Assembly: GCA_965249275.1 (NCBI GenBank)
Contig: CBDFLQ010000007.1
Span: 576,001-640,000 of the forward strand
Source: Dehalococcoidia bacterium
GTDB lineage: Bacteria; Chloroflexota; Dehalococcoidia; Plut-88900
Direction: 5' to 3'
DNA length: 64,000 nucleotides
A program made the position numbers and the translations under genes. The notes beneath the pieces are model-generated. The model was not told the DNA's origin. It searched no databases and saw only the letters and a list, made by a program, of their open reading frames with translations. This document shows, in pieces, positions 3 to 50,562 of this stretch. Every line of letters starts with the position of its first letter. Positions within the stretch are counted from its first letter, which is position 1.

Positions 3-1217
3 GTACTCCGACCCGTCCACCCGTACCTTCTCCTCCCACAACACGTCCAACGGCTTCCCAAGGAAAGCCCGCCGGTACTCGACCCCCACCTCACCCGACA
101 GCGCAAGCATCCGGCCCATCCTGTCTCGCTTATCCCCATCGGACACTGCTGCATCGAAATCGTACGCCCGGGTCCCGGGCCTCCGTGAATACGGGAACAC
201 GTGGACTGCTGCGAAGGCCATCTCACGGCAGAACCGATAACTCTCTTCGAACTCCTCCCAAGTCTCTCCCGGAAACCCGACCATCACGTCAGTCGTGATA
301 GCGATTTGTGGGAGGGCCTCCCGGAATCGGCATACGGCCCTTCTATACCCATCTACCCTGTATCGTCGGCCCATGCGGCTCAGTACGGCGTCGCTGCCGC
401 TCTGCAGCGCTATGTGAACATGTCTGCACACCCGACTATTGCCGAACGCCCGCAGCAGCCTTGGCGTCACATCCTGCGGCTGTATGGAGGAGACCCTCAA
501 CCGCGGCAGGTCCGTCTCCTCCAGGACTCGTTCGATCAGCCCGTGCAGCCGACCATCGTACCCTTCCGGGTCCCGGCGAAACTCGGCGGTCGGGGGGTAC
601 TGGCCATAGGAGCCGATCTGGGGGCCGGTGATAACCACTTCCTTGAATCCCTCATCCACCCGTGCACGGATGTCGGCCAAGGCCTGCTCCAGGGGCACGT
701 TGAATTCCCGACCCCTCGTCATAGGTATTACGCAGAACGCGCAGAACTGGTTGCACCCGTCCTGAATCTTCACGAAAGCCCTGCTCCTCCCCACCCCCCT
801 CACATCCGCTATAGGAGACCGAGCGACCCCATCTTCCCAGTCCGCCATCAACTCCGACGCCACCTCTGCCAGCCGACCCTTGTCCTTGTTCAGGACCACC
901 GCATCTACACTTTTAAGTGCTTCAACTTCCCCCGTGGCCCGGGTCGCGTAGCATCCCGTCACGATCACTTTCGCCTGCGGGTTCCTTCTCCGCGCCCCCC
1001 CGAGCCACTGCCTGCCTTTCGCATCGGCCACGTGGGTCACGCTGCACGTGTTCAGCACGTACAGATCAGCCTCGGCGGACTGGTGCACAACTTCGAACCC
1101 GACCTCCGCCAATCGGCGGCTCATTGCGTCCGCCTCGGCCTGGTTCAGCTTGCACCCGTGCGCCGCTACCGCAACGCGAGGCTTATCTGATCGTCCTGTT
1201 GAAAGTTTGCTCGGCAT
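3..1217 (-). CDS. mtaB: tRNA methylthiotransferase MtaB/MiaB-family radical SAM enzyme (partial, runs off the left edge)
   Basis: Manual minus-strand translation from ATG 1217 gives MPSKLSTGRSDKPRVAVAAHGCKLNQAE...NTCSVTHVADAK (UPF0004 domain) and KIQDGCNQFCAFC (CxxxCxxC). Absent from the ORF track because it has no stop in the window. Confidence 0.88.
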   Translation of the reverse strand, partial: MPSKLSTGRSDKPRVAVAAHGCKLNQAEADAMSRRLAEVGFEVVHQSAEADLYVLNTCSVTHVADAKGRQWLGGARRRNPQAKVIVTGCYATRATGEVEALKSVDAVVLNKDKGRLAEVASELMADWEDGVARSPIADVRGVGRSRAFVKIQDGCNQFCAFCVIPMTRGREFNVPLEQALADIRARVDEGFKEVVITGPQIGSYGQYPPTAEFRRDPEGYDGRLHGLIERVLEETDLPRLRVSSIQPQDVTPRLLRAFGNSRVCRHVHIALQSGSDAVLSRMGRRYRVDGYRRAVCRFREALPQIAITTDVMVGFPGETWEEFEESYRFCREMAFAAVHVFPYSRRPGTRAYDFDAAVSDGDKRDRMGRMLALSGEVGVEYRRAFLGKPLDVLWEEKVRVDGSEY

Positions 1218-8542: not shown

Positions 8543-9379
8543 TCACGTGCTCTTCAATGACGGACTCGGACCACGGGGCCCTTCAGAACGCTGGCGCACC
8601 AGCAGAAACGCCCCGACTGCGAAGACCGCTACCATCGTTAGCAGAGATATTACATGCGCCTGATGCAAAGACCCTATTCTCCCCGGATCGTCCCGCGTGA
8701 ACTGCACAGCGAACCTTATAGCCGCATACGTCCCGAGATAGATCAGCATCACCATACCGTCGGGCTTCACCCGGCCGATGAGCCGCATTATGACGAAGAA
8801 CAGCAGTACGTCGCCCACCATCTCGTACGCAACGGATGGGTGATACGCAAGCTCCGACCCGCTCTCGGATACGGGAATCGCCGGTCTGCCCGTATTCAGG
8901 CCCGGCCAGTTGGCGTGGGTGTGGACCCAGCCCCACGGCAGACTCGTCCGGGTGCTGAAGTGCTCTCCATTGATCACGTCCCCCACCCGGCCAATAGTCT
9001 GAGCGACCAGCATCATGGGGGCGCTAATGTCGGCGATCTTGCCCACGGACTGCTTATTCAAAATCGCCCAGGTGACACCGGTAATCGTCCCACCTAGCAA
9101 AGCACCCCACAGCCCCACACCGCCATTCCAGATGGTGAATATCTTTACCGGGTCGTTTATGTAATAGGACCAGTTATCAAATACGTGAACCAGCCGAGCC
9201 CCCACCACCCCTCCCGGCACCGCCCACGCTGCGCAGGAATAGATGACCTGGGGGTCCATGCCCCTGTCCCGCGCAAGCCTCGCCGTGCCGAATACCGCAA
9301 ATGCCACCCCCAGGGCCGTGAATATCCCGTGCCACGACAACCCCCCAATCAGAAAGGGGTCCATGTTGATTTCAAGCAT
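8543..9379 (-). CDS. lgt: Prolipoprotein diacylglyceryl transferase
   Basis: GVVGARLVHV, IWNGG, QTIGRVGDVINGE, HPSVAYE and RFAVQFTR motifs. Confidence 0.92.
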   Translation of the reverse strand: MLEINMDPFLIGGLSWHGIFTALGVAFAVFGTARLARDRGMDPQVIYSCAAWAVPGGVVGARLVHVFDNWSYYINDPVKIFTIWNGGVGLWGALLGGTITGVTWAILNKQSVGKIADISAPMMLVAQTIGRVGDVINGEHFSTRTSLPWGWVHTHANWPGLNTGRPAIPVSESGSELAYHPSVAYEMVGDVLLFFVIMRLIGRVKPDGMVMLIYLGTYAAIRFAVQFTRDDPGRIGSLHQAHVISLLTMVAVFAVGAFLLVRQRSEGPRGPSPSLKST

Positions 9380-9452
9380 CCTTGATCTCGGGCTCCGTCC
9401 TTATCGTATAAGTAGTCCGATCAGCTTCACTATCCGTTCACTTCACCCATCC

Positions 9453-9482
9453 AGTGTAGCCTCCCCGCCGAATGTCGGTCAA
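9453..9482 (-). promoter_or_regulatory. Putative sigma70 promoter for lgt; its -35 overlaps the 3' end of the large element
   Basis: Minus strand TTGACC (9482-9477), 18-bp spacer, TACACT (9458-9453). Confidence 0.5.
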
Positions 9483-10218
9483 TCCGCTGTACTTGTTCGG
9501 CAGGTTAGTGACACACCGGCCTTTTCTTCAGTCCTCCAGAGGCGGATGTTCCATCTTCGATTGTGGGGTTTCGGTTTCCGTTCTGTCTGTTGGGTTTTGG
9601 GAAGGCGATGGAAGACGCTTGCTGGACGCTACCCCCGTTCCTGTGCCTCGGGTGCTCCGACGCCCTGGGGCAAGGGCGTCCGGCCCGCTTTTGCCGCTGC
9701 TGCGGCCTCTGGGCCTGTATACGCTGGACATGGGCAGGGACCTTCAGGGCCACCGGGTCCGAGCCTGACTCCGGGGGGTTGGCTGCACCGCTTAAGGGCG
9801 GCTAGGAGGCTCGTCCAGCGTCCGGGTGGAGCCTCTTGCAGGCGTAATATGTCCAGGTTTGCCGGTGCGACCCGGAGCGCAGGGACCACCGGCTCCCGGC
9901 TTGATTGAGCGGACGGTGTACCGAGAGGACCTCGGCGCCGGGCCTATCCGACCGCTATTCCGCTTGAAGGAGCGGCATCTCCGTTAGGAGCCTCACATGG
10001 AACGATAGCGAACCAGGGCGTCTTTCCATCGCCTGGGGGTCAGGGAAGGGGGCACGGGACCCGGTGGGGATGAGGAGATGGCGACTTTCGCTTGTGCCGC
10101 GGGCCTGCGCGAGGGCCGTTGGGATGGGCTGAGGCGTTGAGTCCTCGGGGACCGGGGCTGGGCTTCCCCCTAGGTTGTGGTTCCTCCTTAAGGTAGTTGG
10201 GTTAGGTGGTCTAGACCT
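9478..10218 (-). ncRNA. Candidate large structured ncRNA, copy 1 (~740 nt, family not recognised)
   Basis: Homologous to 48578-49309: conserved 5' domain, 65-nt identical 3' block (9505-9569), 15-bp long-range helix (10018-10033 with 9604-9618), dense hairpins, own promoter, no reading frame conserved between copies. Confidence 0.75.
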
Positions 10219-10224
10219 GGCTAC

Positions 10225-10253
10225 AATATAGAACATACGTCTTATCATGTCAA
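10225..10253 (-). promoter_or_regulatory. Sigma70 promoter of ncRNA copy 1 with a LexA-like box in the spacer
   Basis: Minus strand TTGACA (10253-10248), 17 bp, TATATT (10230-10225). Plus strand AGAAC-ATAC-GTCTT at 10230-10243. Confidence 0.7.
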
Positions 10254-10374
10254 TAGGTTAATGTCACCACTCTATGTGAACGGGATCATCCGCCCGACCC
10301 TCCTTTACCATCCGTTATCGCGTTATGTTAAACTTGTTCGGTATTCATCCTCATATTTATAGGAGAGTGGCAAG

Positions 10375-11307
10375 GTGAAAATAGTAATCGATGCATTTTT
10401 AACTCATCTCACCGTGGAACGCGGCCTTTCCGCCAACACCCTATACGCCTACCGTAACGACCTCTACCAGTTCCTGGAGTTCATCGAAACGGGCCTCGGG
10501 CCCAGGAAGCGTGTCTCCAACTGGGGAGGCGTAGATCGCGACATGGTCGCCAAGTACGGCCTCGATCTCCGGGACCGCACCTTCAAGGACTCCACCATCG
10601 CCCGCAAGATCGCCGCCATCAAGTCTTTTTTCGCGTTCCTGGTCGACGAGGGTGACATCGAGACCGCCCCCACCGAGCATATGAACTCGCCGAAGGTTGG
10701 GCGGGCCCTGCCAAAAGCCCTCTCCGTCGAGGACATCAATAGGCTCTTAACTGCGACCAGGGAACGCAAGACCCCGGATGGCCGGCCTAAACCCGTCTCT
10801 CCCGACAGCCTCCGTGACTGCGCTATGTTGGACCTCTTGTACGCCAGCGGACTCCGAGTCACCGAGCTAGTTTCCCTCAACGTTGCCGACGTCGACATTC
10901 GCAACAACCATGTTCGATGTCTGGGCAAGGGCGGCAAGGAGAGGATCGTTCCCATCCACCAGGAGGCCTCCGAGGCCCTGCGGGAGTACGTCGAGCGAGC
11001 TAGGCCTCGCCTCCGAAAGAAGTTCGAAGAGCAGGCTCTGTTCCTGAACCGCCGCGGCGACCGTCTCACGCGGCAAGGCTTCTGGCTTATCTTGAAGGGT
11101 TACGCAAAAGAGGCCCAGATAAAGACCCCCATAACCCCCCACGTCCTCCGTCATAGCTTCGCCACCCACATGCTCAGAGGTGGCGCACCCCTCAGGCACG
11201 TCCAGGAGATGCTCGGCCACGCCAACATCTCTACGACCCAGGTCTACACCCACCTTGCAAGCGATCAGGTGCGTGACCAGTACGACAAAGCGCACCCCAG
11301 GGCCTGA
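10375..11307 (+). CDS. xerD: Site-specific tyrosine recombinase XerD
   Basis: LTVERGLSANT..AY, LLYASGLRVTEL, GKGGKER, TPHVLRHSFATH, LGHANISTTQVYTH; AGGAG SD. Confidence 0.95.
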   Translation: MKIVIDAFLTHLTVERGLSANTLYAYRNDLYQFLEFIETGLGPRKRVSNWGGVDRDMVAKYGLDLRDRTFKDSTIARKIAAIKSFFAFLVDEGDIETAPTEHMNSPKVGRALPKALSVEDINRLLTATRERKTPDGRPKPVSPDSLRDCAMLDLLYASGLRVTELVSLNVADVDIRNNHVRCLGKGGKERIVPIHQEASEALREYVERARPRLRKKFEEQALFLNRRGDRLTRQGFWLILKGYAKEAQIKTPITPHVLRHSFATHMLRGGAPLRHVQEMLGHANISTTQVYTHLASDQVRDQYDKAHPRA

Positions 11308-12102: not shown

Positions 12103-13935
12103 ATGCCTACGCTCTCTATCGCAGACCAGGTAAAGGCCACGCCCACTAAACCCGGCGTCTACATCTTCCGGGACGCCTCCGGCAAGGTTATCTACGTCGG
12201 CAAGGCCGCGGGCCTGCGCAGCCGAGTCCGCTCCTACTTCGCCGACTCCTCTTCACTCACCCTCAAGGGTCGGCACCTCGCCGCGCGCATCGCCCAGTAC
12301 GAATACGTAGTCACCGATTCCGAGGGCGAGGCCCTCATCCTCGAAAACACCCTCATCAAGCGCTACAAGCCCAAGTACAACGTCCGCCTCAAGGACGACA
12401 AGACATATCCCTACATCAAGATAGACCTGGAAGAGGAGTTCCCCCGCGTCTACTTCACCAGGAGACTGGACGACGAGCGCGGCGCCCGATACTTCGGCCC
12501 CTTCGCATCCGCCAGCTCCGTCCGACGCACCCTGGACCTAATCAAGAAGCTCTTCCCTTACCGGTCCTGCACCAAGAACATCACCGGCACCGACCCGCGC
12601 CCCTGCCTCGACTTCTACATCCACCGTTGTGTCGGGCCGTGCATCGGGGCGGCGTCCAAGGACGAATACCGCCAGGTTATCGACCAGGTCATCCTGTTCC
12701 TCGAAGGGAAGCACGAGACCATAGTCAAAGACCTGAGCGCCAGTATGCACCAGGCCGCCGAGCGTCTCGAGTTCGAGCGCGCCGCCGCCCTCAGGGACCA
12801 GGTACGCGCCATCGACAGGGTATCGCAGACGCAGAAAGTCCACTCCCTACACCTCAAGGACGAGGACTACATAGCCCTGTCACGCGGCCAGGACGAGGCA
12901 TGGATCGAGATATTCTTTGTCCGTGCAGGCAAGACCGTAGGCCGAGACCACTTCATCATGGAAGGCACCCAGGACGAGGGTGACGCCGATATAATGGCCG
13001 GATTCATCAAGCAGTTTTACGACTCGGCATCCTACGTCCCGCCCCTCCTCCTTCTCCAGCACGCACCTGTTGACTCCACCTTGATTAACTCTTGGCTGGA
13101 GAGTAAACGAGGCCGCAGAGTCCATATGAAAGTCCCCCGCCGCGGCAACCGTAGAATGCTGCTGCAGATGGTCGCCGCCAACGCGGAGCAGGGGCTCGCG
13201 CAGCGCCACATCAAGTGGCTGGCCGACGCCGACGCCATCACCGGGGCCATGTCTGAGCTTCAGGAGCACCTCAACCTCCCCGAACTGCCCCAGCGTATGG
13301 AATGCTACGACATTTCCAACATTCAGGGCTCAAACCCCGTCGGCTCAATGGTCGTCTTCGAAAACGGAAAACCCAAGCCTGCCCACTACCGCAAGTTCAA
13401 GATCAAGACCGTCCAGGGCATCGACGACTATTCCATGATGCAGGAGATGCTCCGCCGACGCTTCCGCCGGCTCAAGGACGCCGTCAACGCCAAACCCGAC
13501 GGCTGGACCATCGTCCCTGACCTCGTCCTCATCGACGGAGGCAAGGGCCACCTTGGCGCCATACACCAGCTCTTCCTGGAACTCGGCATCGCCCATATCC
13601 CCCTGGCCAGTATCGCAAAGCGCTACGAGGAGGTGTTCCGCCCCGACAGCAAGGAGCCTATCATCCTGCCTCGCAGTTCGCAGGCCCTCTACCTTGTCCA
13701 GCGCATCAGAGATGAAGCCCACCGCTTCGCCATTACCTTCCACCGGCAACTGCGGAAGAAGAGCAGCGTGAGGTCGGCCATGGACTCTGTCCCGGGCATC
13801 GGGCCCAAACGAAAGAAGGCCCTCATCCGCAGGTTCGGCACGGTCAACGCGATACGCGAGGCCGACACCAGTGAAATCGCAGCCGTGGTCGGGATGACCC
13901 AAAAGCTCGCCGAAATTGTCAAAGAGCACCTCTAA
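12103..13935 (+). CDS. uvrC: Excinuclease ABC subunit C
   Basis: GIY-YIG domain (PGVYIF..IYVGKA), UVR domain, ECYDISN, LIDGGKG, RDEAHRFA and C-terminal HhH. Confidence 0.98.
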   Translation: MPTLSIADQVKATPTKPGVYIFRDASGKVIYVGKAAGLRSRVRSYFADSSSLTLKGRHLAARIAQYEYVVTDSEGEALILENTLIKRYKPKYNVRLKDDKTYPYIKIDLEEEFPRVYFTRRLDDERGARYFGPFASASSVRRTLDLIKKLFPYRSCTKNITGTDPRPCLDFYIHRCVGPCIGAASKDEYRQVIDQVILFLEGKHETIVKDLSASMHQAAERLEFERAAALRDQVRAIDRVSQTQKVHSLHLKDEDYIALSRGQDEAWIEIFFVRAGKTVGRDHFIMEGTQDEGDADIMAGFIKQFYDSASYVPPLLLLQHAPVDSTLINSWLESKRGRRVHMKVPRRGNRRMLLQMVAANAEQGLAQRHIKWLADADAITGAMSELQEHLNLPELPQRMECYDISNIQGSNPVGSMVVFENGKPKPAHYRKFKIKTVQGIDDYSMMQEMLRRRFRRLKDAVNAKPDGWTIVPDLVLIDGGKGHLGAIHQLFLELGIAHIPLASIAKRYEEVFRPDSKEPIILPRSSQALYLVQRIRDEAHRFAITFHRQLRKKSSVRSAMDSVPGIGPKRKKALIRRFGTVNAIREADTSEIAAVVGMTQKLAEIVKEHL

Positions 13936-48007: not shown

Positions 48008-48530
48008 CCATCCCGAGGCCTCGCGAGGGATCTCAAACGCCTGCTTGCACAACACAAATGCCTATCCGACCATCCTTGTCCCCCTTCCACCCCCTCCCAT
48101 CATTCCCGACCCCTATCGGGCGGAACGTGCGCCTATGGCGTGAATCCATCCCTTACCTCTCTCGTCATTCTCGTGCCCCGACACGGGAATCCATCCCCGG
48201 TGCGGGGCCGCTCATCCTGAGCTAAGTCGAAGGGTCGAGCGATGGGTGGCCCACCTTAGCCAATTCGTTGCCCGTGCCACCCCCCACCCCCTCCCGTCAT
48301 TCCCGGCCCCTATCGGGAATCCATCCCCCTTCCCCCCCAGTACTGAACTAGAGGGAGACGTTGGCGCGTCTGCGCCAACGTCTCCCTCTGTTCTTATCTC
48401 CCCCTCTCTCTTGAAGGCCCTAAGGGTCGAAGATGTCGTAGATGCGCCTGGGCGTGCGCCCGTGGCGTGAGAGGGGGACAAAAGGGGTGAGGGTTCCCCG
48501 GTGGGGTTGGGGCGGCGTCCCCTAAAAGTG
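48008..48530. repeat. Cluster of REP/MITE-like palindromic repeats
   Basis: Three TCATTCYCG...GAATCCATCCC units (~48098-48152, 48164-48198, 48296-48329), a perfect 18-bp stem at 48350-48389, and a CCCCCTCTC...GAGAGGGGG pair. Confidence 0.7.
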
Positions 48531-48541
48531 ACACGAACCCC

Positions 48542-48571
48542 TTGACCTCACCTGAACATCCGTGCTATTCT
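48542..48571 (+). promoter_or_regulatory. Sigma70 promoter of ncRNA copy 2 with a LexA-like box
   Basis: TTGACC (48542-48547), 18 bp, TATTCT (48566-48571) with extended -10 TG. GAAC-ATCC-GTGC at 48554-48565. Confidence 0.65.
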
Positions 48572-48577
48572 CCCCAC

Positions 48578-49309
48578 CGTTCGAATACCAACCCAACTAT
48601 CTCAAGGAGGAACCAAAAACCCAGGGAAGCCCACCCGACCCACCAGAGGATTCAACGCCTCAGCCCATCCCAACGGCCTTCGCGCAGGCCCGCGGCACAA
48701 GTGACCGGCGCCATCTCCTTTTCCCATCGGGTCCCGTGCCCCTTTCCCTGGTAGTCAGGCGATGGAAGATGCCTGGACGGCGTCATAGTGGACCGGCCAT
48801 CCTCCGCCGAGACCCCGTCTCGGTGGTCGGTTAGCAGCGAGCTTACGCTTTATCAAGCATGGGGTGGCGGACCGGCTATCCCCGTCCGAGACTCCCTCTC
48901 GGAAGTTGGCCCGCCTGCGAGCTTACGCCATATCAAGCAAGGGGCCGTTGGGCCGCCTAGACCCTCGGGTGGCCCACGCAAATACGATATCTGAGGGGGC
49001 TACAGCCCGATCACTGGCCCCCATCATGCCTGTGGGCATTCAGAGGCGGGGTCACAGCCGGACTATCTCCCCGGAAAGTCCGTGTTTATCATCGAGCGTT
49101 AGGGGTGGCAGGGCTTCCATGCCTCGGAGCAGCCCAACATCCGCCAGCAAAACGGGGCAAAACCGACCAATCAGCGTCTTCCATCGTCAACCCTCCCAAC
49201 AGACAAAACCCCACCCCACCCCACAATCGAAGATGGAACATCCGCCTCTGGAGGACTGAAGAAAAGGCCGGTGTGTCACTAATCTACCGAACGAGTACAC
49301 CCGATTGAC
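48578..49309 (+). ncRNA. Candidate large structured ncRNA, copy 2 (~730 nt, family not recognised)
   Basis: Homologous to 9478-10218(-). Helix 48758-48772 with 49174-49188 is retained through two G-U pairs. Identical block at 49218-49282. Confidence 0.75.
48790..48944 (+). repeat. Degenerate ~80-nt tandem duplication inside ncRNA copy 2
   Basis: GGACCGGC..CCGAGAC..TCTCGG..GCGAGCTTACGC..TATCAAGCA.GGGG occurs twice (48790-48864 and 48869-48944). Confidence 0.85.
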
Positions 49310-49333
49310 AACCGACCAGTCCAAAAGCATACT
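49305..49333 (+). promoter_or_regulatory. Putative sigma70 promoter for the downstream LLM gene; its -35 overlaps the element's 3' end
   Basis: TTGACA (49305-49310), 17 bp, CATACT (49328-49333). Confidence 0.55.
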
Positions 49334-49383: not shown

Positions 49384-50562
49384 ATGACACTGCCCGACCG
49401 CATGAAGTTCGGCATTTTCATGGCCCCCTTCCATTGGGCCGCCGAAAATCCTACCCTCTCCTTTGAGCGCGACATGGAACTCCTGGAGTGGCTCGACCAG
49501 CTGGGCTACGACGAAGCCTGGATCGGCGAGCATCACAGTGGAGGCTGGGAGACCATCGCTTCCCCGGAGATATTCATAGGCGCCGCCGCCCAGCGCACCA
49601 AGCACATCAAACTGGGCACGGGCGTCCTCAGCCTTCCCTACCATCATCCCCTCATGGTCGCCAACCGCATGATCCAACTAGACCACATGACCCGAGGCAG
49701 AGTGATGATGGGAGTCGGGCCCGGGGCCCTTGTCGGCGACGCCTTCATGCTCGGCATCGACCCTCCTCTCCAGCGCCAGCGCATGGACGAGGCCCTCAAC
49801 ATCATCCTCCGCCTCTGGACCGAGACCGACCCCATCACCTACGAAGCCGACTGGTTTACCCTCAAGGAGGCCACCGTCCACCTTCGCCCATATACTCTGC
49901 CCCACATCCCCGTCGCAGTTGCCGCCTCCTATTCCCCCGCTGGAATGGTCTGCGCCGGTAAATACGGCCTCGCCGTCCTCTCCCTGAACACCATCTCGGT
50001 CCCCGGCGCTGCAGCCCCCGACCTTGCCAAGTTCTGGGACATCGCCGAGGAGACCGCCGACAAGTACGGCAATACCGTCAGCCGAGACGACTGGGGCATC
50101 GTCATTCACGTCCACCTCGCCGAGAGCCGCAAGGAGGCCATAGAGCAGGCCCGAGAGGCCTCAGGCCGCTACCAGAAGGAGTATTTCGAAGACACCCTGG
50201 GCCTGCCAACCGCCTTCGAAGGGCCCCAGGACAAGATCATCGACCACATGGTGGCCACCAATAACTGGTGCGTCGGCACCCCCGACGACCTTGTCGAGAC
50301 CATTCACCGGCTTGAGGAGGAGTCGGGCGGATTTGGAAGACTCCTCATTCAGGCCACCGAGTGGGGAACACGTGAGCAGGTACTCCACAGCTACGAACTC
50401 CTTGCCCGCTACGTAATGCCTCGCTTCCAGGGCTCGGTAACCAGCCTCCACAACTCCCGAGAGTGGTCGGTCAAAAAACGCGAGGAGCTCGTCGCCCTCA
50501 ATATCAAGGCCATGGACAAGGCCAAAGCCGACTACGTCAAAAACGTAGCCGCAGGTCCCTAG
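49384..50562 (+). CDS. LLM-class flavin monooxygenase (limonene 1,2-monooxygenase-like)
   Basis: KFGIFMAPFH, LGYDEAWIGEHHS, LPYHHP and LDHMTRGR; AAGGAGG SD. Confidence 0.93.
   Translation: MTLPDRMKFGIFMAPFHWAAENPTLSFERDMELLEWLDQLGYDEAWIGEHHSGGWETIASPEIFIGAAAQRTKHIKLGTGVLSLPYHHPLMVANRMIQLDHMTRGRVMMGVGPGALVGDAFMLGIDPPLQRQRMDEALNIILRLWTETDPITYEADWFTLKEATVHLRPYTLPHIPVAVAASYSPAGMVCAGKYGLAVLSLNTISVPGAAAPDLAKFWDIAEETADKYGNTVSRDDWGIVIHVHLAESRKEAIEQAREASGRYQKEYFEDTLGLPTAFEGPQDKIIDHMVATNNWCVGTPDDLVETIHRLEEESGGFGRLLIQATEWGTREQVLHSYELLARYVMPRFQGSVTSLHNSREWSVKKREELVALNIKAMDKAKADYVKNVAAGP

Follow-up and report, generated by a model that had tools for sequence, protein, structure and literature searches.

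A genus-restricted family of non-coding DNA cassettes next to gene promoters in Dehalococcoidia

Two intergenic stretches in a 64,000-nucleotide window of the genome of a Dehalococcoidia bacterium (contig CBDFLQ010000007.1, positions 576,001 to 640,000; all coordinates below are those of this window) resemble each other although they lie 38 kb apart in unrelated gene contexts. The original prediction saw in them a new large structured RNA, either independently transcribed or mobile through RNA, and the question is what these stretches are and what they do next to the genes that follow them. Both are members of a genus-restricted family of non-coding DNA cassettes. "Present twice", as first described, is correct for the window but not for the genome, where iterative nhmmer searches returned 54 matches to the 5' domain and 51 to the 3' domain. 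This confirms the multicopy character that had been proposed and puts the similarity between copy 1 and copy 2 far above chance. Together the elements occupy 39,487 bases of the 2.9-Mb genome, or 1.36% of the assembly. In a BLAST-level search all 8 other genomes of the genus had the element and none of 22 other relatives did, and a covariance model of the 5' domain, run on 151 genomes of the class, gave matches in 5/5 genus genomes and 0/146 others. Among species-representative genomes, the exact-pattern matches listed, at least 80, all fell in six chromosomes named 'MAG: Dehalococcoidia bacterium'. Phage and plasmid collections contained no match to the element, and an origin from either was rejected on this ground. 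Literature searches, limited in reach and directed at main texts, found no such element in Dehalococcoidia or sponge symbionts.

Comparison of the two window copies upheld most of what had been described for them. The 65-nt core is shared letter for letter (9505-9569, reverse complement, and 49218-49282) and is their longest exact run in common; a 56-nt motif of the 5' part occurs once per copy, at 10146-10091 on the minus strand and 48646-48701 on the plus strand. Pairwise alignment gave 77% column identity overall, with conserved ends of about 220 nt (5') and 150 nt (3') around a diverged centre, and a CCTG-loop-CAGG stem that is kept while the loops differ. The promoter that each copy was said to carry is also reflected in the sequence: the promoter scan returned two promoter-like sites per copy on the element strand, against 0.3-0.4 expected from shuffles, and none on the opposite strand of either copy. 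The borders, in contrast, had to be moved from those first given (9478-10218 and 48578-49309). The inserted DNA starts further upstream, at about 10288 in copy 1 and about 48524 in copy 2, and ends at about 9487 and about 49300; the first range was thus too long at its 3' end, where its last bases are the -35 box of the neighbouring gene.

All copies have the same order of parts, namely a promoter (P1), the sequence AAGGAGG, a 5' domain, a centre enclosed by a long-range helix, a C/A-rich linker, zero to three hairpins and often a tail, with a size of roughly 750 nt (about 650-900 bp). At 80 loci from six other genomes, 63 of 72 5' domains were accompanied by a 3' domain at a distance of 545-919 nt and none by one at a greater distance, the remaining nine being without a 3' domain within the locus. 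Copy 1 lies on the minus strand. It begins with a left-end module (10254-10288) that carries GTGACA (10267-10261) 8 nt upstream of the -35 box; the module also precedes P1 in other A-type copies, with unique DNA beginning upstream of it, and in most of the 109 copies examined the GTGACA 7-mer keeps to one spacing from the -35. P1 follows at 10225-10253 (TTGACA, 17 nt, TATATT; 11 of 12 matches in the promoter scan), and from its position transcription would start near 10218. The Shine-Dalgarno-like AAGGAGG, which no start codon follows, is found at 10183-10189, followed by the conserved 5' domain (10034-10182), in which alignments and a hairpin test revealed invariant blocks and a variable hairpin at about 10127-10102. 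The long-range helix had been anticipated and is present: its 5' strand (10033-10013) pairs with its 3' strand (9625-9604), as seen from inverted pairs and duplex energies. Between them lies the centre (9626-10012), assigned by clustering to type 2 of about ten, a type common to 10 copies in the genome with a within-type identity of 0.92. An 11-nt perfect complement between 5' domain and centre of copy 1 is absent from the type consensus and was taken as chance. The C/A-rich, G-poor linker (9563-9603), a small hairpin module (9532-9552) and the 3' tail (9487-9531) complete the copy. The tail ends 4 nt before the -35 box of lgt, a border placed by this spacing and by empty/filled comparisons from other loci. 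Outside the inserted DNA, the promoter scan found the resident promoter P2 of lgt (9453-9482; TTGACC, 18 nt, TACACT), and the co-oriented gene for the prolipoprotein diacylglyceryl transferase LGT lies downstream on the same strand (8543-9379; Pfam PF01790, E 1.3e-49).

Copy 2 repeats this arrangement on the plus strand. Its left end (48524-48571) comprises GTGACAC (48528-48534) and P1 (TTGACC at 48542, with the -10 ending at 48571), and is followed by AAGGAGG (48604-48610) and the 5' domain (48611-48757). The two strands of the long-range helix, found as an inverted pair at 48758-48773 and 49172-49188, enclose a centre (48774-49171) that is a singleton type in this genome and has an internal duplication of ~76 nt; with its orthologs in two other genomes of the genus, G002 and G005, it shares 96% identity. 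Linker, hairpin module (49235-49255) and 3' tail extend over 49189-49300. The promoter scan then placed the resident P2 of a luciferase-like monooxygenase gene at 49305-49333 (TTGACA, 17 nt, CATACT), and the gene itself is downstream and co-oriented (49384-50562; Pfam PF00296, E 2.5e-47).

The individual parts are conserved throughout the family. P1 follows the pattern TTGnnn-16..19-TnnnnT in 109/109 copies; 106 of these have TTGAC and 84 a spacer of 18 nt. An exact AAGGAGG lies 29-37 nt beyond the -10 in 108 of the 109, and in none of the 109 does an ATG, GTG or TTG occur 4-12 nt downstream of it. This is the configuration of a STAB-SD, a non-initiating SD-like sequence near the 5' end, with the 5' end here inferred from the promoter only; RNase J is encoded in the genome (571 bits versus a cut-off of 400). 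The first 60 nt after the helix, in 102 copies, are composed of 39% A, 40% C, 11% G and 9% T. Rho is present in 5/5 single-contig relatives and was not found in the genome's own assembly, which is 87% complete. Hairpin modules number zero in 60 copies, one in 33, two in 14 and three in 3; genome-wide there are 84, of which 52 lie outside the elements. The presence of GGA in every invariant block led us to consider a CsrA/RsmA sponge, an idea dropped when CsrA (PF02599) was not found in any of the five genomes searched, the genome under study among them.

The genes that follow the element have little in common. Downstream co-oriented ORFs encoded Pfam families of unrelated function in 36 of 40 cases tested, and they include housekeeping genes (leuS, uvrA, def, lgt, argC and ribF among them); tRNA genes follow two copies. 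Element and next gene are co-oriented in 37 of 54 cases (binomial p=0.0045); about 10 of the 54 lack a co-oriented gene close by, and some point towards a convergent gene. Where the spacing between tail and -35 box could be scored it was 4 nt in 18 and 3 nt in 2 of 20 copies. At leuS, argC and the monooxygenase locus, comparing sites with and without the element shows that the -35/-10 pair adjoining the element belongs to the gene. The monooxygenase P2 is identical in G001 and G003, both of which lack the element there, and the lgt P2 is kept in G001, G006 and G007, where the upstream element differs or is absent. Occupancy varies from locus to locus, with the element found at argC in 2/9, at leuS in 8/9, and at lgt and the monooxygenase gene each in 7/9 genomes.

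We favour reading the element as a cassette of promoter and structured leader that spreads as DNA, and give this about an even chance of being correct. P1 would be a strong sigma-70-type promoter brought along by the cassette. Its transcript would start about 25 nt before AAGGAGG, which may act as a 30S-binding, STAB-SD-like 5' stabiliser, and would run through the 5' domain, the helix-closed centre, the single-stranded C/A-rich linker and zero to three hairpins. Extended into the gene, it would form a long structured leader and provide a second, stabilised transcript; alternatively, Rho may stop it at the C-rich linker. Spread and reshuffling would both take place at the level of DNA, with homologous recombination or gene conversion between copies swapping centres and upstream flanks. 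Several observations detailed elsewhere in this account count against the reading: whole-element folds that do not beat shuffles, 5'-domain pairs lacking compensatory changes in RNAalifold, a folding strand that leans antisense if anything, the copies with no co-oriented gene close by, the failure to find an enzyme for spread or to establish a target-site duplication, the non-syntenic upstream flanks, and Rho not being found in the genome's own assembly.

How new copies arise bears directly on the RNA-based mobility that had been suggested, and here the evidence points the other way. At leuS, the comparison of filled with empty sites places P1 within the inserted DNA, so that the P1 transcript cannot be the copied unit. 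The reverse transcriptase domain RVT_1 was found neither in the 87% complete genome nor in any of the five single-contig relatives. With the copies also too short to hold the corresponding ORF, a group II intron or other retro-mobility was rejected. That no transposase or reverse transcriptase lies inside the element had been noted from the window and holds for all copies, including the 63 further ones of 545-919 nt. An IS110, IS200/IS605 or TnpB partner was likewise discarded, as the respective domains were not found in the genomes searched: the IS110 DEDD transposase (PF01548) and the TnpB zinc-ribbon domain each gave no hit in the own genome, and Y1_Tnp none in the five relatives. No autonomous partner with the same ends was seen among the 72 5' domains of the six other genomes. 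A tyrosine recombinase beside copy 1 (10375-11307) was judged coincidental, because none of the 54 copies has such a neighbour except copy 1 and its counterpart at the duplicate locus on contig C4. Inspection by eye showed the ends to share no more than a 5-mer and GTGACA, both short and located near the termini rather than at them.

These observations also weigh on the view that the element is a selfish, non-autonomous, MITE-like DNA repeat with no role as RNA, its helices being DNA hairpins, cruciforms or sites for a mobilisation protein, its promoter a passenger and its insertion upstream of promoters simply harmless. We consider this unlikely. A high copy number confined to one genus would fit it, as would presence and absence varying between close species, the mosaic build with other small repeats around, and the breaks in synteny at elements (the upstream flank is non-syntenic at two of three compared loci, argC and monooxygenase). 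Its expected hallmarks were not found, however. A repeat search on copy 1 detected no inverted repeat joining its two termini, no target-site duplication could be made out where empty and filled sites were compared (leuS, argC, monooxygenase; the leuS junctions fall within C-runs, where a duplication of 3-4 nt may be masked), none of the 63 further copies contains a long enzyme-coding insert, and the transposition domains named above were not found in the genomes in which each was searched. Conservation argues against it as well. Ten pairs of orthologous copies share their centre type. Across these, the part of the element predicted to be transcribed has an identity of 93.6% (6638/7094), against 86.8% (1294/1491) for the third codon positions of the neighbouring gene (Fisher p=5e-17), and it scores higher than they do in 9 of the 10 pairs. 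Such conservation is unexpected of decaying selfish copies, as is a promoter and AAGGAGG left intact in essentially all of them.

The helices were assessed by their energetics and base changes. The long-range helix covaries. Over 85 distinct strand pairs, cognate duplexes had a mean energy of −16.5 kcal/mol versus −12.5 kcal/mol for non-cognate ones, a difference reached in 0 of 5000 permutations; 332 of 364 helix cells are Watson-Crick, and positions 11-13 vary on both sides (A-T/G-C, C-G/T-A, G-C/C-G). The variable hairpin, with 67 distinct segments that form several different stems, was evaluated sequence by sequence since its register differs between variants and no shared columns are possible. 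Its minimum free energy averaged −9.7 versus −4.8 for shuffles, and it was the more stable in 60 of 67 segments. RNAalifold on a MAFFT alignment of the 5' domain yielded 22 pairs, none with a compensatory change. Folding of the whole element showed no gain over shuffles in either window copy (z = +0.46 and −1.04 for sense, +0.79 and +0.43 for antisense). Between the strands, helix duplexes are more stable as antisense (−18.8 versus −16.5 kcal/mol), with sense the better in only 16 of 85 pairs, and so is the variable hairpin (−12.1 versus −9.7). Helix cells contain 14 G.U versus 9 A.C; at predicted pairs between orthologs, 69 changes led to A.C versus 28 to G.U, an excess for which base-specific rates account in part, and 5 of 187 changed pairs were compensated. 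By these energies and pair counts the folding strand leans, if anything, to antisense, and the lack of preference for the sense strand is a further point for a DNA-only repeat.

The original prediction expected a discrete, independently transcribed RNA of ~740 nt. This gained no support: searches for intrinsic terminators in sense orientation came up empty in both window copies, and the element abuts a gene promoter of the same direction, which makes a leader role at least as likely. Metatranscriptome contigs of relatives cover parts of the element (four runs from two studies), although such contigs are blind to starts, ends, strand and level, DNA may be present in the libraries, and uncovered parts as well as the zero cover on lgt carry no evidential weight. 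Two of the RNA runs with element parts are labelled sponge metagenome, and hold only a small share of the element. An independent family of trans-acting large RNAs, each a discrete molecule of ~650-700 nt made from P1, probably ended by Rho and serving for example as a protein- or ribosome-binding scaffold, with promoters as mere landing sites, is in our judgement unlikely. The conserved promoter, which is built like a tRNA promoter of this genome, would suit such an RNA, and so would the centre, at 95.2% identity between orthologs conserved like coding sequence, and the copies that lack a co-oriented gene. The centre type is moreover independent of the downstream gene, the C-rich linker together with the Rho of relatives would permit a defined 3' end, and size and non-coding nature recall OLE, GOLLD and ROOL (PMC12286853). 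Against it, the contigs of relatives give no discrete transcript, whole-element folds carry no thermodynamic signal, and neither the orientation bias nor the fixed 4-nt distance to the -35 would be needed. We also know of no precedent for 50-100 copies of a trans-acting RNA in a 3-Mb genome.

The centres, of about ten types and 350-530 nt, allow the question of function to be approached from another side. At lgt, the window centre has an identity of 0.72-0.75 to those of G002 and G005, compared with 0.90-0.96 for the 5' and 3' parts, while on contig C4, which duplicates the locus, the centre is that of G002/G005 (0.93-0.95). Centres are thus swapped between copies. One gene with different centre types across strains or species argues against a gene-specific regulatory role. 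A link of centre type with gene function gave nothing convincing either: four of six Amidohydro_2 genes follow type-1 centres, and these paralogs may have been duplicated with their upstream region. We regard as unlikely a domesticated, genus-wide regulatory layer, in which some 50-100 resident promoters per genome would each be equipped, 4 nt ahead of the -35 box, with a strongly transcribed, structured RNA of ~650 nt. Its centre, of one of about ten types conserved like coding sequence, would bind a factor or signal and control the adjacent promoter or its mRNA in cis, and recombination would re-assign genes to other centre types, as the strains differ at lgt.

The element is non-coding, as first proposed. 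It has no 3-periodicity, and of the gap runs in centres of types 0, 1 and 2, respectively 0 of 73, 4 of 31 and 8 of 37 are multiples of three. A protein-coding origin was rejected because variable columns show no preference among the three codon phases and most gap runs break the frame; the long open frames on the sense strand are no sign of coding, being consistent with a T-poor composition, and an 8-codon ORF (ATG...TGA) in the 65-nt core was discarded as many copies lack the ATG. The statement that no known RNA family is recognisable was likewise sustained. Rfam 15 gave no match at gathering score in the 64-kb window or, apart from one tRNA, at 18 further loci of many centre types, and with the limit relaxed to E<=10 the library, which includes OLE, GOLLD, ROOL, HEARO, raiA, group II intron domains, T-boxes and riboswitches, returned only noise (E at least 0.11) in both copies; known families were set aside accordingly. 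That the element belongs to an already described class (one of these families or a group II remnant) or is a degraded protein gene is very improbable, for all that its size and multi-helix build resemble the large ornate RNAs and its position upstream of genes, two aminoacyl-tRNA synthetase genes among them, recalls leaders, given the missing Rfam matches, reverse transcriptase and codon periodicity, the frame-breaking indels and the phage and plasmid collections without a match.

In summary, if the cassette reading is true, one genus has put the same large structured non-coding unit before dozens of unrelated promoters, and keeps these units above third-codon conservation while their middles shuffle. 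The family would then be a case for the movement of promoters and leaders from gene to gene where no transposase can be recognised, for whether large bacterial RNAs can form multicopy modular families, and for repeat-driven genome rearrangement in uncultured, symbiont-like Dehalococcoidia. If the regulatory-layer reading were true, large RNAs would make the wiring of a regulon programmable by recombination. Even a purely selfish element would be unusual in its length, its lack of inverted ends, its precise position at promoters and its high conservation. For structural work, the family offers about 100 natural variants of the long-range helix and hairpin.

Several known systems share single traits with the cassette. 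Insertion sequences can supply outward or hybrid promoters, and the cassette, too, lands by a gene promoter and is predicted to add co-directed transcription. Involvement of insertion sequences in promoter capture has been described (PMC3575422). Unlike them, the cassette contains no transposase, the transposase families searched were not found in these genomes, and the resident promoter is left intact.

Correia elements, ERIC and REPIN measure about 100-160 bp and have terminal inverted repeats or depend on RAYT. They are promoter-bearing intergenic repeats (PMC3575422) that can be co-transcribed with their neighbours, and the cassette is intergenic, multicopy and promoter-carrying as they are. 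It differs in being five times longer and orientation-biased, in its conservation above a synonymous-site proxy, and in having neither a terminal inverted repeat nor, in the five relatives, a Y1 transposase.

OLE, GOLLD and ROOL usually occur once per genome. They are large ornate bacterial RNAs of 600-800 nt (PMC12286853), and the cassette resembles them in being non-coding and multi-helix with long-range pairing. Their covariance models fail on it, however, and it is set apart by 54 copies, promoter adjacency and interchangeable centres. With the STAB-SD, the 5' mRNA stabiliser of cry3A (PMC4113751), it shares a non-initiating SD-like site near the predicted 5' end of a long untranslated leader, and the organism encodes RNase J. 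In contrast to that system, AAGGAGG is here one block of a much larger conserved element, and stabilisation would hold by analogy.

A parallel may also be drawn with putative mobile promoters (PMPs), defined by an identity of 80% or more across 50 nt or more within −150 to −50 of non-paralogous start codons (Matus-Garcia, Nijveen and van Passel 2012; PMC3575422). In both cases closely similar non-coding DNA stands upstream of unrelated genes in one genome. Read by eye from the pairwise alignment, identity between the window copies is ~90% over ~52 nt within −150 to −50 of the starts at 9379 and 49384, and LGT and the monooxygenase are non-paralogous. Most PMPs have no Rfam match, and their way of moving is not established (PMC3575422). 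PMPs are windows of 50-100 nt that occur mostly in pairs (PMC3575422), whereas the cassette is ~750 nt long, structured and present in 54 copies. Unlike PMPs, it brings along a full promoter and leaves 4 nt between its end and the -35 box already in place.

The element occurs in the window as copy 1 (9487-10288, minus strand) and copy 2 (48524-49300, plus strand). The homology between 9478-10218 (-) and 48578-49309 (+), on which the original prediction was built, was reproduced with 77% column identity in a pairwise alignment; the 65-nt identical core lies exactly at 9505-9569 and 49218-49282 and is the longest exact run common to both copies, each of which contains the 56-nt 5' motif a single time. 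Both copies carry two promoter-like sites on the strand of the element and none on the opposite strand, with 0.3-0.4 expected from shuffles, in line with the predicted promoter. As had been proposed, no known RNA family was recognized: the window gave no Rfam match at the gathering score, and searches with either copy at E ≤ 10 returned noise only. A repeat search on copy 1 likewise found no terminal inverted repeats. The statement that the element is present twice holds for the window, where these are the only copies, but not for the genome, in which the family is far larger.

In the organism's own assembly (G000, GCA_965249275.1; 2.9 Mb, seven contigs, 87% complete) a BLAST-type search returned 61 matching pieces. 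Iterative nhmmer found 54 5'-domain and 51 3'-domain matches, pairing into elements of ~645-895 nt with a total of 39,487 bases, or 1.36% of the assembly. At BLAST level the element was present in all eight other genomes of the genus (G001 to G008) and was detected in none of three other genera of the family and none of 19 other families. When 151 genomes of the class, from 111 genera, were searched with a covariance model for the 5' core (117 positions), all five genus genomes matched and none of the 146 others did. Scanning one genome per species with an exact pattern gave at least 80 loci, and among the matches listed all were on six chromosomes with the title 'MAG: Dehalococcoidia bacterium'; phage and plasmid collections held nothing similar. 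The related genomes compared are kin, not independent samples.

At the 5' end lies a short module whose GTGACA motif precedes the -35 box of the internal promoter P1 by 8 nt; P1 itself comes next (TTGAC in 106 of 109 copies, an 18-nt spacer in 84, and a -10 box that is mostly TATATT or TATTAT). Between P1 and an AAGGAGG located 29-37 nt after the -10 box lies a short, subfamily-specific stretch. The AAGGAGG is exact in 108 of 109 copies, and none of the 109 has a start codon (ATG, GTG or TTG) 4-12 nt downstream of it. The 5' domain then consists of invariant blocks broken by a variable hairpin, and leads to the two strands of a long-range helix, which enclose a centre of 345-531 nt. The helix is followed by a C/A-rich, G-poor linker of ~45-60 nt (over 102 copies, A 39%, C 40%, G 11% and T 9%), then by a brief conserved motif that can carry ~22-nt hairpin modules (none in 60 elements, one in 33, two in 14, three in 3) and, in 42 of 110 copies, a 3' tail of ~45 nt. 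Clustering divided the centres of the own genome into about ten types with 12, 12, 10, 5, 4, 3, 2, 1, 1 and 1 members, with 83-93% identity within one type. Since P1-side subfamilies, hairpin variants, centre types and 3' ends combine variously, the elements are mosaics.

Some further features were seen within this architecture. The ~22-nt hairpin module (TCCGCC-3 nt-GGAGGA) has 84 sites in the own genome, 32 inside the 54 elements and 52 elsewhere, and is sometimes inserted in the 5' domain (11 of 110 copies). The more distant species of the genus (G004, G007, G008; e.g. G004:C1:1019099-1019294 and G008:C1:1317899-1318100) have 5' domains with tandem partial duplications and also with ~40-nt insertions. 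The centre of copy 2 contains an internal direct duplication of ~76 nt with 78% identity (window 48907-49061) and a CCGAG...CTCGG hairpin in each unit.

The element is non-coding. Within the centre types, gap runs mostly have lengths not divisible by three, and variable columns show no preference for any of the codon phases; the long open frames seen on the sense strand agree with its base composition (C 38%, T 15%).

Evidence for base pairing comes from two places, the long-range helix and the variable hairpin. For the helix, 85 distinct strand pairs over 99 copies (own genome and six others) gave a cognate mean of −16.5 kcal/mol vs −12.5 for non-cognate duplexes, and none of 5000 permutations reached the cognate value. 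Strands of the two main helix classes form good duplexes only with strands of the same class; of 364 cells in a 14-bp register, 332 are Watson-Crick, with positions 11-13 varying on both sides. The hairpin has 67 distinct versions in 103 copies, including several unrelated stems at one place, and a mean MFE of −9.7 vs −4.8 for shuffled sequences (lower in 60 of 67). Whole-element MFE z-scores were insignificant for sense and antisense, and RNAalifold on a MAFFT alignment of the 5' domain gave 22 pairs with no compensatory change. Antisense helix and hairpin were more stable than the sense versions, and G.U cells in the helix (14) barely exceeded A.C cells (9). Between orthologs, where the MFE structures are approximate, predicted pairs showed 69 changes to A.C vs 28 to G.U, an excess that base-specific rates, in particular the fast T/C differences, account for in part; compensation was seen in only 5 of 187 changed pairs, and differences affected 5.3% of predicted paired vs 7.5% of unpaired positions. 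We therefore infer the sense strand as the folding strand from the promoters rather than from the pairs.

The best-supported reading is that the element is a DNA cassette bringing a promoter, together with a long structured untranslated RNA, to a site directly upstream of resident promoters. Downstream of 44 of the 54 copies (the duplicate on contig C4 left out), an ORF of 120 aa or more in the same orientation starts at most 400 nt from the 3' end. Pfam families were found in 36 of the 40 ORFs tested out of these 44, among them Glx- and Leu-tRNA synthetases, UvrA, ArgC, a ProA-kind aldehyde dehydrogenase, RibF, peptide deformylase, a succinate-dehydrogenase-like flavoprotein, six Amidohydro_2 proteins, amidase, aminotransferase, arginase, MetE-like proteins, transporters and one rve transposase, in addition to LGT (8543-9379, minus strand) behind copy 1 and a luciferase-like monooxygenase (49384-50562, plus strand) behind copy 2. 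tRNA genes stand directly behind two copies, at L018:2264-2337 (an extracted locus; G000:C5:615843-615916) and downstream of G000:C6:81765; both are driven by a promoter abutting the element's tail. About ten copies have no such co-oriented gene, some of them standing opposite a convergent gene. A family of trans-acting RNAs is a live alternative; the orientation bias (37 of 54 counted as co-oriented, binomial p = 0.0045) and the fixed distance between tail and -35 box (4 nt in 18 of 20 scorable copies, 3 nt in two) speak against a purely trans-acting one.

A purely selfish DNA repeat is likewise a live rival, against which conservation of the element argues. Ten orthologous pairs of the same centre type, with two own copies giving two pairs each, showed identities of 84.9% for the P1 region, 89.7% for the 5' domain, 95.2% for the centre, 93.7% for helix and 3' part, 92.6% for the spacer with P2 (the resident promoter of the downstream gene) and 94.4% for the first 450 nt of the gene. 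The transcribed element overall reached 93.6% (6638/7094) vs 86.8% (1294/1491) at third codon positions, thus exceeding that level, and was higher in nine of ten pairs (Fisher p = 5e-17). As all compared pairs had centre identities of at least 0.92 or at most 0.76, the cut of 0.9 separates types and truncates no distribution.

Orthologous loci were also compared across 12 genomes from the family, nine of them belonging to the genus. Within the genus, the element stood upstream of leuS in eight genomes (not detected in G001), of lgt in seven (not detected in G003 and G007), of the monooxygenase gene in seven (not detected in G001 and G003) and of argC in G000 and G003 only. At these loci it was never found in other genera (three for leuS and lgt, two for argC and the monooxygenase gene). 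The -35 box, spacer and -10 box are the same at empty and filled sites; P2 therefore belongs to the gene. The insert at leuS contains P1 and begins a few bases upstream of the GTGACA motif, so that a P1 transcript cannot be the copied unit, which speaks against the RNA-based mobile element of the original prediction. Comparison of empty and filled sites revealed no clear target-site duplication, although junctions in C-runs at leuS could hide one of 3-4 nt. At two of the three loci, synteny was lost in the upstream flank, as recombination between copies would lead one to expect.

Many orthologous loci carry unrelated centres, yet reach 0.85-0.96 in the alignment of their 5' and 3' parts. At lgt, the centre of the window copy is of type 2, and G002, G005 and contig C4 share another type (0.93-0.95 among themselves). 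C4 (9,145 bp) is a 9-kb duplicate of the recombinase-element-lgt region (window 8543-11307) with 95% identical LGT, and probably represents a second strain co-assembled in the MAG. The different centre at this locus points to exchange between very close strains. Concerning mobilizing enzymes, searches of the own genome for RVT_1, the IS110 DEDD domain and the TnpB zinc ribbon gave no match, and neither did searches of five single-contig relatives for RVT_1 and Y1 transposase. Tyrosine recombinase gave five matches in the own genome, one divergent from copy 1; the recombinase-beside-element arrangement was seen only there and in the C4 duplicate, and none of 63 further copies had an enlarged centre.

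Other repeats occur in the same genome. A second family of ~750-900 nt (12 copies, e.g. G000:C5:156945(+), C5:477201(+), C6:946494(+)) has a P1-type promoter module, its own long-range helix on the element's ATGGAAGG / CCTTCCAT theme, three tandem small hairpin modules in one copy, and a sense frame open over at least 250 codons that looks compositional (R/P/S-rich). A third group of look-alike upstream regions (about ten sites, e.g. C5:329503(-), C6:91444(+), C7:812461(+)) combines the GTGACA motif, a TTGCC -35 box, a C-rich spacer and TATAAT with a common AAACAATCAAAC-like stretch. GTGACAC 8 nt upstream of a TTGAC -35 box also stands alone, at window ~11820 (G000:C7:587820, +) and G000:C5:117381 (+), preceding ordinary genes (window ORF 12103-13935) and a tRNA gene, and hence looks like a general promoter-upstream motif of the organism. 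A G-rich REP-like module (GGGGTGAGGGTTCCCC...) at window 48460-48523 and 21 other places of the own genome is often directly upstream of elements; since the empty leuS site in G001 has it as well, it is an independent repeat.

Parts of the stretch were contained in 20 of 24 listed runs, five of those 20 recorded as RNA. In contigs of four RNA runs from two studies, pieces with 85% likeness fell on the 5' domain and parts of the centre, with a summed word depth of up to 80 vs 0-10 on flanking genes; these being assembled contigs of relatives, with DNA carry-over possible, they give neither start, end, strand nor level of a transcript and offer a weak hint of expression only. Transcripts from P1 would either continue into the gene or end ahead of it. 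On the sense strand, neither window copy showed an intrinsic terminator. Rho is encoded in all five single-contig relatives; a search of the own assembly for its RNA-binding domain gave no match, most likely because of an assembly gap. The C-rich linker together with Rho in the relatives would allow Rho-dependent stopping.

With regard to known systems, the invariant AAGGAGG near the presumed 5' end, lacking a start codon, together with RNase J, which the own genome encodes, fits a 5' stabilizer of the STAB-SD type, as described in PMC4113751 and in literature cited by PMC3997798. Large ornate RNAs (PMC12286853) are like the element in size only. Among published concepts, the putative mobile promoter (PMC3575422) comes closest.
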